From Escherichia coli (GTDB taxonomy: Bacteria; Pseudomonadota; Gammaproteobacteria; Enterobacterales; Enterobacteriaceae), in assembly GCF_045037415.1 (NCBI RefSeq), contig NZ_CP173438.1: 64,000 nt of DNA. One strand, given 5' to 3'. The position numbers are program-made. Each line of letters begins with the position of its first letter. Position 1 is the first letter of the stretch. Below are positions 24,901 to 27,900 of this stretch, in pieces.

Positions 24901-27900
24901 AACCTGACCATGATGACGGTTTCGCCTGTACTACCGCTTCAATGAGTGAACAAAACAAAGTGTTTGAGCAGGCTTTTTTCACGATGATAAACCAGCGCCA
25001 GTTACGCCCAGGGGAAACTTTTTCTGAACTGCAACTGGCTCGGGCCGCGGGTGTCAGCCCGGTGGTTGTAAGAGAATATCTTTTAAAATTCGGCCGTTAT
25101 AATCTTATTCAAAGCGAAAAGCGCGGCCAGTGGAGCATGAAGCAATTCGATCAATCCTACGCCGAGCAGCTGTTTGAGCTACGCGAAATGCTCGAAACAC
25201 ATTCACTTCAGCACTTTCTCAACCTGCCTGATCATGATCCCCGCTGGCTGCAGGCGAAAACCATGCTCGAACGTCACAGGCTACTGCGTGACAACATCGG
25301 CAATAGCTTTCGCATGTTCTCGCAACTTGACAGAGATTTTCACTCCTTACTGCTTTCAGCTGCCGACAATATCTTTTTTGAACAATCGCTTGAGATCATA
25401 TCAGTCATCTTTCATTTTCACTATCAATGGGACGAAAGCGATCTTAAACAGCGCAATATCATTGCCGTCGATGAGCATATGACCATTCTCAGCGCTCTGA
25501 TTTGCCGCAGTGACCTTGATGCCACCCTTGCGCTCCGTAACCATTTGAATTCAGCTAAACAATCAATGATTCGATCCATTAATGAGAACATGCGTTATGC
25601 TCATTAAGTACGGATTAAAAACAGCAAACTATTAGCGGGTGCACGGTTTTATCAAAAGATAAATACCGGAAAATTCCCGCTTACCTATGCTCACAATCAG
25701 TCGACTAAAAATGTTTTTTTGTGAGCGGTAGTAAAGTCCTAAAACTTTAACCTGCCGTTAATGTCAACCTTGCGTAATGCACAATTACGTAAACAATTAA
25801 AATTATAAATACAGGAGTCCGGCGTGGAAAAAGAAAATATCACCCTCGATCCGCGTTCTTCATTTACTCCATCTTCGTCGGCAGATATTCCCGTGCCACC
25901 AGATGGATTAGTTCAACGCAGTACCCGAATTAAACGCATTCAAACCACCGCCATGTTGTTATTATTTTTTGCGGCGGTAATCAATTATCTCGACCGCAGT
26001 TCGCTGTCGGTAGCAAATTTAACGATTCGTGAAGAATTGGGATTAAGTGCCACCGAAATCGGCGCTTTGCTCTCCGTGTTTTCACTCGCTTACGGGATTG
26101 CGCAACTTCCTTGCGGCCCACTATTGGATCGTAAAGGCCCGCGCCTGATGTTGGGACTGGGGATGTTCTTCTGGTCACTGTTCCAGGCAATGTCTGGCAT
26201 GGTGCACAGCTTTACGCAGTTCGTGTTGGTGCGTATCGGTATGGGAATTGGTGAAGCGCCGATGAACCCATGCGGTGTAAAAGTCATTAACGACTGGTTC
26301 AACATCAAAGAGCGCGGACGCCCGATGGGCTTCTTCAACGCAGCTTCTACCATTGGCGTTGCCGTAAGCCCACCGATTCTGGCGGCGATGATGCTGGTGA
26401 TGGGCTGGCGCGGGATGTTTATTACCATTGGTGTACTGGGGATTTTTCTCGCCATCGGCTGGTATATGCTCTATCGCAACCGCGAGCACGTAGAACTGAC
26501 TGCCGTTGAACAAGCTTATCTCAATGCAGGTAGCGTCAATGCCCGCCGAGATCCGCTCAGTTTTGCCGAATGGCGCAGCTTGTTCCGTAACCGCACAATG
26601 TGGGGAATGATGCTCGGATTCAGTGGCATCAACTACACTGCGTGGCTGTATCTGGCCTGGCTTCCTGGTTACCTGCAAACAGCCTATAACCTGGATTTAA
26701 AAAGCACAGGGTTGATGGCGGCTATCCCTTTCCTGTTTGGGGCTGCCGGGATGCTGGTCAACGGTTACGTTACTGACTGGCTGGTCAAAGGGGGAATGGC
26801 TCCGATTAAAAGCCGTAAGATCTGCATTATTGCCGGGATGTTCTGTTCTGCCGCCTTTACGCTGGTCGTACCGCAAGCGACAACATCCATGACAGCGGTT
26901 CTGCTGATTGGTATGGCACTGTTCTGTATTCACTTTGCCGGAACATCCTGCTGGGGCTTGATCCACGTCGCAGTTGCTTCTCGCATGACTGCGTCGGTGG
27001 GCAGTATCCAGAACTTTGCCAGCTTCATCTGCGCCTCTTTTGCGCCGATCATTACTGGTTTTATTGTTGATACCACCCACTCATTCCGTCTGGCACTAAT
27101 CATCTGCGGTTGCGTCACCGCAGCGGGGGCACTGGCGTACATCTTCCTGGTTCGTCAGCCGATCAACGACCCACGGAAAGATTAATCTCCCTATGCCCGA
27201 TAACATTTTGCTTATCGGGCATTTTTATGGCGATTAAAACGTTTCCCAGTTCTCACCGCTATCTGCCACGGCCATTTTACGCGGCGCAGCTGGCATCACG
27301 GTTTTTACCACAGCCGATGTTTCACGCTGCTGTTGCTGCTGTTGCTGAATCCGGAACACTGCCACTGCTTCGGTCAGGCGACTGGCCTGCTCTTCCAGCG
27401 CGGCGGCGGCGGCGGCAGATTCTTCCACCAGCGCGGCGTTCTGTTGAGTTACCCGGTCCATCTCAGCAACCGCTAAGCCAACCTGATCGATACCACGGCT
27501 CTGCTCATCAGAAGCAGAAGCAATTTCGCCCATAATGTCCGTCACGCGGGTCACAGCACTGACAATCTCCGCCATTGTTTCCCCGGCGCTTTCGACCAGC
27601 GTAGAGCCAACATCCACTTTCCCCACCGAGTCTTCAATCAGGCTTTTAATTTCACGAGCCGCCTGGGCGCTACGCTGGGCCAGATTACGCACTTCTCCCG
27701 CAACCACCGCAAAACCACGTCCTTGCTCACCCGCACGCGCTGCTTCAACCGCCGCGTTCAAAGCCAGAATATTGGTCTGGAAGGCAATGCCGTCAATTAC
27801 GCTGATAATATCGGCGATTTTCTGCGAACTGGTGGAGATATCACGCATAGTCTGCACCACGTTATCTACCACTTTGCCGCCGCGTTGCGCCGTTTCAGAA

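Follow-up and report, generated by a model that had tools for sequence, protein, structure and literature searches.

The window, the whole 64-kb stretch of Escherichia coli DNA analyzed, carries the gene of the serine chemoreceptor Tsr on the minus strand, and a run of glutamine codons resides within the gene. The features relevant to the analysis are:

27234..28898, minus strand: tsr, gene of the serine chemoreceptor (methyl-accepting chemotaxis protein I), 554 codons and a stop
27327..27347, minus strand: seven Gln codons, Tsr residues 518-524, 2.4 perfect copies of CAGCAACAG
27252..27350, minus strand: C-terminal flexible tether, I517 to E549, 33 residues (counted as in PMC10561060), by direct translation
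27237..27251, minus strand: NWETF pentapeptide, residues 550-554, by direct translation

The ORF, whose size of 554 aa had been correctly called in the first-pass annotation, ends in NWETF, and is recognized over its entire length (1-554 of 554) by the NCBIfam equivalog PRK15041, with a score of 1221.5 bits vs. a cut-off of 947. The same ORF scores 747.6 with the Tar model, under the cut-off of 900 set for that model, and also falls below the cut-offs of the Tcp and Tap models. The families PF02203, PF00672 and PF00015 are precomputed for a database match of 100% identity, and correspond, in this order, to a TarH sensor, a HAMP and an MCP signalling domain; the same three Pfam families are listed for tsr products. 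The neighbors of tsr are btsT and lgoT, and the gene is placed in the same way in K-12 strain C600 and in ST131. The flanks of tsr are mosaic among E. coli: the upstream neighbor is btsT, hpaR or a regulator of the MurR/RpiR type, and the downstream one is either lgoT or a TRAP transporter. The tsr gene of the window is 100% identical to that of ST131 genomes, the product of which is annotated as RefSeq WP_000919544.1, and the window differs from NZ_OY019088.1 by one mismatch over 41,665 bp. The window is essentially an ST131-type chromosome.

On the minus strand, from 27347 to 27327, the tract reads CAG CAA CAG CAG CAA CAG CAG, in agreement with the (CAG/CAA)7 run initially described, and both sequence and translation give seven Gln residues. 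It is preceded on the coding strand by GTG TTC CGG ATT, and followed by CGT GAA ACA TCG. The tract is made up by a 9-bp unit, CAGCAACAG on the coding strand, which encodes QQQ; unit 1 spans 27347-27339, unit 2 27338-27330, and a partial third unit 27329-27327. Tandem Repeats Finder reports a period of 9, 100% matches and 2.4 copies at 27326-27347. Only three repeats of short period (9-10 bp) score 40 or more in the 64-kb window, and the tract is one of them; it is also the sole run of at least seven identical residues in the window ORFs of 150 aa or more. As in coding VNTRs, at least two perfect copies of the unit are arranged head-to-tail, and the alleles of different strains (Q4, Q7, Q10 and Q13) differ by whole units, copy numbers being 1.4, 2.4, 3.4 and 4.4 in other E. 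coli genomes. ORFs of Q4, Q7, Q10 and Q13 alleles read directly are intact, and measure 551, 554, 557 and 560 aa, respectively. The possibility that the gene is a phase-variable contingency locus was discarded, the unit being 9-bp long and in-frame, and all alleles read ending intact in NWETF.

In C600, a strain of the K-12 lineage, the corresponding segment is ATT CAG CAA CAG CAG CGT, hence Q4 and 1.4 copies of the unit, in a 1656-bp gene encoding 551 aa. The first-pass annotation had given K-12 Tsr as 551 aa with four Gln, which proved right; K-12 does not carry seven Gln at this position. MG1655, BW25113, DH1, TOP10, HB101 and BL21 feature a 112-bp target in the survey described below, as C600 does, and K-12 Tsr in PDB 6S1K also carries Q4. 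K-12 and window Tsr share the btsT-tsr-lgoT locus, the order of domains and the NWETF end, the two genes being 98.0% identical at the DNA level. Upon alignment, K-12 tsr has one 9-bp unit fewer (Q4 vs. Q7), a difference of 9 bp and three Gln as anticipated, and the linkers further differ at two residues (K-12 vs. window: T vs. M in KTV(T/M)P, E vs. G in DS(E/G)ENWETF). A Tsr with seven Gln is already present in public records, both as WP_000919544.1 and in PDB 3ZX6. The Tsr segment of the latter, a HAMP-Tsr fusion, matches the window in Q7 tract and linker length, and is set apart by two linker substitutions (TPATP vs. MPAAP in the window). A literature search found no paper describing a tsr repeat polymorphism, which is weak evidence that the polymorphism has not been described.

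Tract length was monitored in 5426 complete genomes with 121-bp (Q7), 112-bp (Q4) and 130-bp (Q10) query segments, each including 50 bp of flank per side. An identity of at least 95% to the Q7 query denotes the absence of the 9-bp gap; all counts correspond to identity bands of allele-specific queries, and are hence approximate. The Q7 query matched 5342 genomes, 4059 of them at 95% or more, 1200 at 90-95% and 83 at 80-90%; 704 genomes matched at 99% or more. The Q4 query matched 1270 genomes at 95% or more. Identity to the K-12 flank was at least 99% in 1040 genomes, from sources as different as humans, dogs, chickens and wastewater. The Q10 query matched 155 genomes at 95% or more, about 83 being partial-coverage matches to divergent Q4 genes of the BEN2908 type. 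An imperfect seven-codon allele, QQEQQRQ (CAG CAA GAG CAG CAA CGC CAG), first met in strain PSS-10, was found in 40 genomes, ETEC O6:H16 strains among them, and accounts for the 39-40 extra genomes matched by the Q10 and not by the Q7 and Q4 queries. The classes given below, in which the split between Q4 and Q10 assumes that the 83 partial Q10-query matches are the 83 genomes of low identity (80-90%) to the Q7 query, and Q4 is inflated by laboratory derivatives (the set is biased, including many laboratory K-12/BL21 derivatives and clinical clones), add up to about 5382 genomes, in line with the 5381-5385 genomes having the region:

Q7 length: about 4059 genomes, 75% of about 5382
Q4: about 1211 genomes, 22.5% of about 5382
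Q10 or longer: about 72 genomes, 1.3% of about 5382
QQEQQRQ: about 40 genomes, 0.7% of about 5382

Most E. coli genomes, about 75%, have Q7, and its carriers include ST131, O157:H7, SE11 and 042. The survey, which had been proposed as a check of the putative expansion, thus reveals a common tract rather than a special one. Q4 is carried by K-12, BL21, HB101 and many natural isolates, Q10 by HS, a commensal reference strain. A synthetic Q13 query detected three genomes in which the target is 139 bp long, and Q13 was read directly in RM14723, A13 and Z1323HEC0355, in which 4.4 perfect copies reside in the gene of a 560-aa Tsr. Target lengths in 180 evenly sampled rows of matches were 112, 121 or 130 bp only, and lengths deviating from multiples of 9 bp were found neither in these 180 rows nor in 120 protein variants. 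The variant spectrum was obtained by a full-length Tsr protein search, which returned E. coli and Shigella variants only. A zero-unit allele (Q1) was not found among the matches listed, the ranking of which is crowded by two-piece alignments.

The distribution of the alleles was compared with a neighbor-joining tree of 25 tsr genes, drawn from 1644 sites after removal of the tract, and thus the tree of one recombining gene. Length alleles are polyphyletic, being scattered across the tree, with Q7 on every major branch sampled. According to Fitch parsimony the root has seven codons, and at least nine length changes occurred among the 25 genes. Q4 occurs on three backgrounds or more: a clade including K-12, BL21, PF9285, VTB97022v, 504838 and FAM21845, which adjoins SE11 (Q7); a group formed by BEN2908 and a poultry isolate, 2-3 differences away from FDAARGOS_1279 (Q7); and 1217KP alone. 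Q10 is similarly found in S51 and KSC64, with a 3' haplotype common to SE11 (Q7), in 94-3024, with a 3' haplotype common to strain 042 (Q7), and in GmF046 and SC455, a group in which Q13 is nested. Independent and recurrent changes, a further trait of coding VNTRs, are therefore seen, and part of the apparent recurrence could be due to recombination. An established way in which units are gained and lost is the slipped mispairing of short direct repeats, and the copy number of the tsr repeat most likely changes recurrently by replication slippage.

The direction of change was evaluated by measuring the segment from FRI to NWETF. Outgroup lengths derive from partial C-terminal fragments of putative Tsr orthologues found in databases, several of which lack a species label, and from one Yokenella locus, the closest outgroups (E. 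albertii, E. fergusonii and E. marmotae) lying outside the set. Lengths, in residues, are:

Window (Q7): 32
K-12 (Q4): 29
Q10: 35
Q13: 38
Fragments labelled Salmonella enterica: 31
Fragments labelled Enterobacter hormaechei and E. cancerogenus: 32
Yokenella Tsr-like gene: 32
Unlabelled relatives: 31-32

In an alignment of 13 sequences the window form is ungapped relative to most outgroups, in which the slot reads QQEQ(Q/M/K)xxRE, K-12 has to be gapped by three residues, and Q10 carries an insertion of equal size. The E. coli allele QQEQQRQ equals the window form in length, and resembles the outgroup motif. Because outgroups measure 31-32 residues and the root of the tree has seven codons, Q7 is regarded as the ancestral length; as judged by these comparisons, the allele of the window is both modal and ancestral in length, and the loss of one unit is the best reading of Q4 in K-12. 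Two more alleles, QQQQQHQ and QQQQQQH, also have seven codons, the His codon being CAT, one step from CAG. QQQQQHQ was considered as an intermediate in a path leading from QQEQQRQ (CGC) through CAC to Q7 (CAG), and rejected, because the codon found is CAT and the alleles lie inside the Q7 and Q4 clades. Codon and placement indicate that both arose later, by point mutation in the perfect repeat, and are not intermediates.

The tract is very probably the two-copy, ancestral-length, modal allele of a recurrently varying in-frame 9-bp repeat, the Gln residues of which serve as tether spacer. The repeat would sit where the last cytoplasmic helix of Tsr meets the flexible NWETF arm, on which CheR and CheB dock. 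The ancestral seven-codon slot probably held two similar 9-bp segments, CAGCAAGAG and CAGCAACGC, an imperfect similarity that QQEQQRQ alleles still display, and three nucleotide changes would have turned them identical, making the site prone to replication misalignment. Later on, different lineages would have repeatedly lost units (Q4, as in K-12 and B) or acquired them (Q10 and Q13). Each unit would add three spacer residues to the tether; changes in number would be the outcome of slippage, and have a small, graded effect on the reach of the tethered CheR and CheB.

Pentapeptide-tethered chemoreceptors are defined by a C-terminal xZxxZ pentapeptide (NWETF) following a linker of about 30-35 residues (PMC7390727), and the window Tsr, in which 33 residues, from I517 on, lie ahead of NWETF, is one of them. 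The tether of K-12 Tsr begins at I517 and is 30 residues long (PMC10561060); by this start the Gln tract falls at the N-terminal end of the arm, and translation supports the initial placement of the tract in Tsr, ahead of the flexible NWETF arm. The arm is unstructured according to PMC10561060 and PMC7390727, in the passages quoting Bartelli and Hazelbauer 2011. In the PDB model 8C5V the chain ends at residue 516; this end, along with a linker poorly conserved in sequence but kept in length across genera, gives indirect support to an unstructured linker. CheR binds to the NWETF end with about 2 uM affinity, and phosphorylated CheB also binds there (PMC7390727, PMC8609364). Among 120 E. coli and Shigella variants, 118 have a constant distance of 23 residues from RE to NWETF, and two fall outside the pattern; the Gln repeat is therefore, in these 118 variants, the only part of the arm varying in length within E. 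coli.

That a change in tract length could affect adaptation kinetics, as had been put forward at the outset, is reasonable in principle. With Tar tethers of 22, 29, 34 and 46 residues, the fitted peak of CheR density moves by 0.128 +/- 0.048 nm per residue (PMC10561060). Published Tsr site distances and tethers of 30, 33 and 36 residues were entered in the formula fitted on Tar. The transition from Q4 to Q7 would lower CheR density at the main sites by about 25% (13-43% over the error of the slope), an order-of-magnitude figure because Tar-fitted. Tar experiments suggest, as a whole, that three residues more or less in the tether have a small, graded effect.

The repeat might work as an adaptive tuning knob, different lineages (the K-12 and B clade included) or niches selecting the copy number, and tether length tuning the kinetics of Tsr methylation and the precision of serine taxis. 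Gains and losses of units would, in this case, modify the reach of tethered CheR and CheB to an extent sufficient to shift the speed or precision of Tsr adaptation. Repeated independent changes in length, the size and success of the natural Q4 clade (the 1040 genomes matching the K-12 flank), the published observation that CheR positioning responds to tether length in a graded manner, and the 13-43% by which, extrapolating from Tar, each unit would alter local CheR density are all compatible with such a role. Yet alleles and habitats show no association in the host and source labels listed, the longer alleles are rare (about 1%), and the maintenance of 31-32 residues in other genera, in spite of poor sequence conservation, suggests mild stabilizing, not diversifying, selection. 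The large natural Q4 clade, spread over many hosts, itself denotes that the loss of three residues is well tolerated. Adaptive tuning is thus an unlikely explanation; if true, quantitative chemotaxis parameters obtained with K-12 would be unrepresentative of E. coli at large.

Scattered alleles could also be the product of homologous recombination, each length having arisen once and spread from strain to strain, with no need of an unusually unstable site. E. coli recombines, the genes flanking tsr are mosaic, and the QQQQQQH allele, seven codons long, is placed within the Q4 clade. The Q4 gene of BEN2908, however, differs from the Q7 gene of FDAARGOS_1279 at 2 of 1644 sites, and differences between BEN2908-type and K-12-type Q4 genes are found 10 nt downstream and 42 nt upstream of the tract. 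The import of Q4 into BEN2908 would hence require a conversion patch no longer than about 50 bp, and gain or loss in place is simpler. The same short-patch argument holds for the three separate Q10 backgrounds, and spreading by recombination alone is quite improbable.

In the first-pass annotation the tract had been taken as a 9-bp in-frame expansion, which implies a strain-specific, derived lengthening of an ancestral four-Gln tract, with a possible effect on the kinetics of adaptation. The claim holds in part, as the window is longer than K-12 by 9 bp, or three Gln; it fails in that the additional unit is not peculiar to the window, Q7 being both the majority and the root state. Tether length does matter in Tar, and in the Tsr-like protein of Yokenella a run of four Gln is likewise encoded by CAGCAACAGCAG. 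Yokenella was the only hit of a degenerate DNA pattern scan of contigs for AVFRIQQQQ, an incomplete scan by which E. coli itself was missed. The four Gln are followed in Yokenella by MKA, so that slot plus linker reach 32 residues, as in the Q7 form. Moreover, Q7 is found in about 75% of genomes and across all major branches sampled in the tsr tree, the root of which has seven codons, and hundreds of genomes carry a tsr gene identical to that of the window. A derived expansion in this strain is largely refuted by frequency and outgroup data, and is very unlikely. That the tract is an artefact of sequencing or assembly, due to low complexity, was dismissed altogether: nothing was found in its favor, and the same 21 bp are present in thousands of independently finished genomes and in the crystallized construct PDB 3ZX6.

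The tract is best regarded as an ordinary in-frame slippage polymorphism, and the protein of the window as a standard E. coli Tsr. The result bears more on the reference strain: K-12, on which nearly all quantitative chemotaxis work is based, has a minority tether, three residues shorter. The difference between the Tsr and Tar tethers of K-12, 30 vs. 34 residues, has been given a meaning (PMC10561060); the Tsr tether is 33 residues long in about three quarters of genomes. Alleles with tethers of 30, 33, 36 and 39 residues, set in near-identical backgrounds, form a natural series providing a ready test of tether-length models. For the window itself the tract is of little consequence.

Coding-region VNTR polymorphisms in bacteria arise by slipped-strand mispairing. 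The tsr repeat resembles bacterial in-frame coding VNTRs in general, being made up by perfect head-to-tail units, with alleles differing by whole units that are recurrently gained and lost. In contrast with classical contingency loci, the copy number is very low (1-4), the repeat is probably far less mutable, and on/off switching does not occur. A functional counterpart may be sought in the engineered Tar tethers (PMC10561060). In both systems an unstructured, NWETF-ended arm holds CheR, and in Tar its length sets the position of the enzyme along the receptor; Tar tethers were changed by artificial indels, in steps of 5-12 residues, whereas the Tsr series is natural, and proceeds by steps of three residues.

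The genes around tsr, which encodes the serine chemoreceptor, are mosaic among E. coli strains (compared loci L002, L004, L007-L021 and L025-L027). The gene is preceded by btsT in the window and in K-12, by hpaR in BL21, SE11, S51 and other strains, and by a MurR/RpiR regulator in PSS-10. Downstream of tsr reside either lgoT or a TRAP transporter, the latter found in BEN2908, 1217KP, GmF046, SC455 and FDAARGOS_1279, and in the strains with thirteen Gln codons (RM14723, A13 and Z1323HEC0355). One block near tsr, and two repeats located elsewhere in the window, are as follows:

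about 32680-41510: 'immigration control' block, taken from the ST131 annotation (L006, 7393-16220)
5841-6327: tandem array of a 101-bp unit, 4.8 copies, 97% matching
14139-14462: three tandem tRNA-Leu genes, 121-bp period

According to the ST131 annotation, the block combines symE and the R, S and M subunits of a type I restriction-modification system with another restriction endonuclease plus the toxin-antitoxin pair BrnT/BrnA, and is followed by yjiA, yjiX and btsT. The tRNA-Leu trio matches three tRNA-Leu genes of the ST131 record, adjoining yjjZ and rsmC. The 101-bp unit contains GCCGGATGCGGCGTGAACGCCTTATCCGGCCTAC, which we take to be a REP-type palindromic element, and the array is therefore probably a BIME-like intergenic array.

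Besides the seven-codon Gln tract (27327-27347, minus strand), tsr features a second codon run, and the flexible arm differs from other Tsr forms at two sites:

27399-27416, minus strand: six consecutive Ala codons within tsr, 5.7 perfect copies of a triplet
27267-27269 (Tsr residue 544-545 region) and 27306-27308, minus strand: variant linker residues (Met, Gly) in tsr

The Ala run precedes the Gln tract by 50 bp and, unlike the latter, did not vary in length in any of the E. coli tsr genes read. It is shorter by one Ala in P0123, a fragment from an Enterobacter MAG. A degenerate pattern, GCNGTNTTYCGNATHCARCARCARCAR, searched against the genome-contig collection, matched Yokenella regensburgei only, though the E. 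coli tsr read here fits the pattern. Searches of this kind seem to miss true matches, and absences in the genome-contig collection are consequently not to be read as evidence.

In the window linker KTVMPAAP features a Met at a site that is Thr in nearly every other variant (Met in 3 of 120 protein variants), and DSGENWETF a Gly at the position occupied by Glu in K-12. Both look like ST131-lineage substitutions. Further variation was observed in FDAARGOS_1279 (L018), the codon preceding the Gln tract being CTG rather than CGG, which turns FRI into FLI; the residue altered, R516, is taken as the tether attachment point in PMC10561060.

In the discussion of the same paper, the Tsr tether is given as 30 aa vs. 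34 aa for Tar, a difference argued to fit the shorter mean distance of Tsr to its methylation sites. The 30-aa figure is K-12-specific. About 75% of E. coli genomes encode a Tsr with a 33-aa tether, nearly as long as that of Tar.
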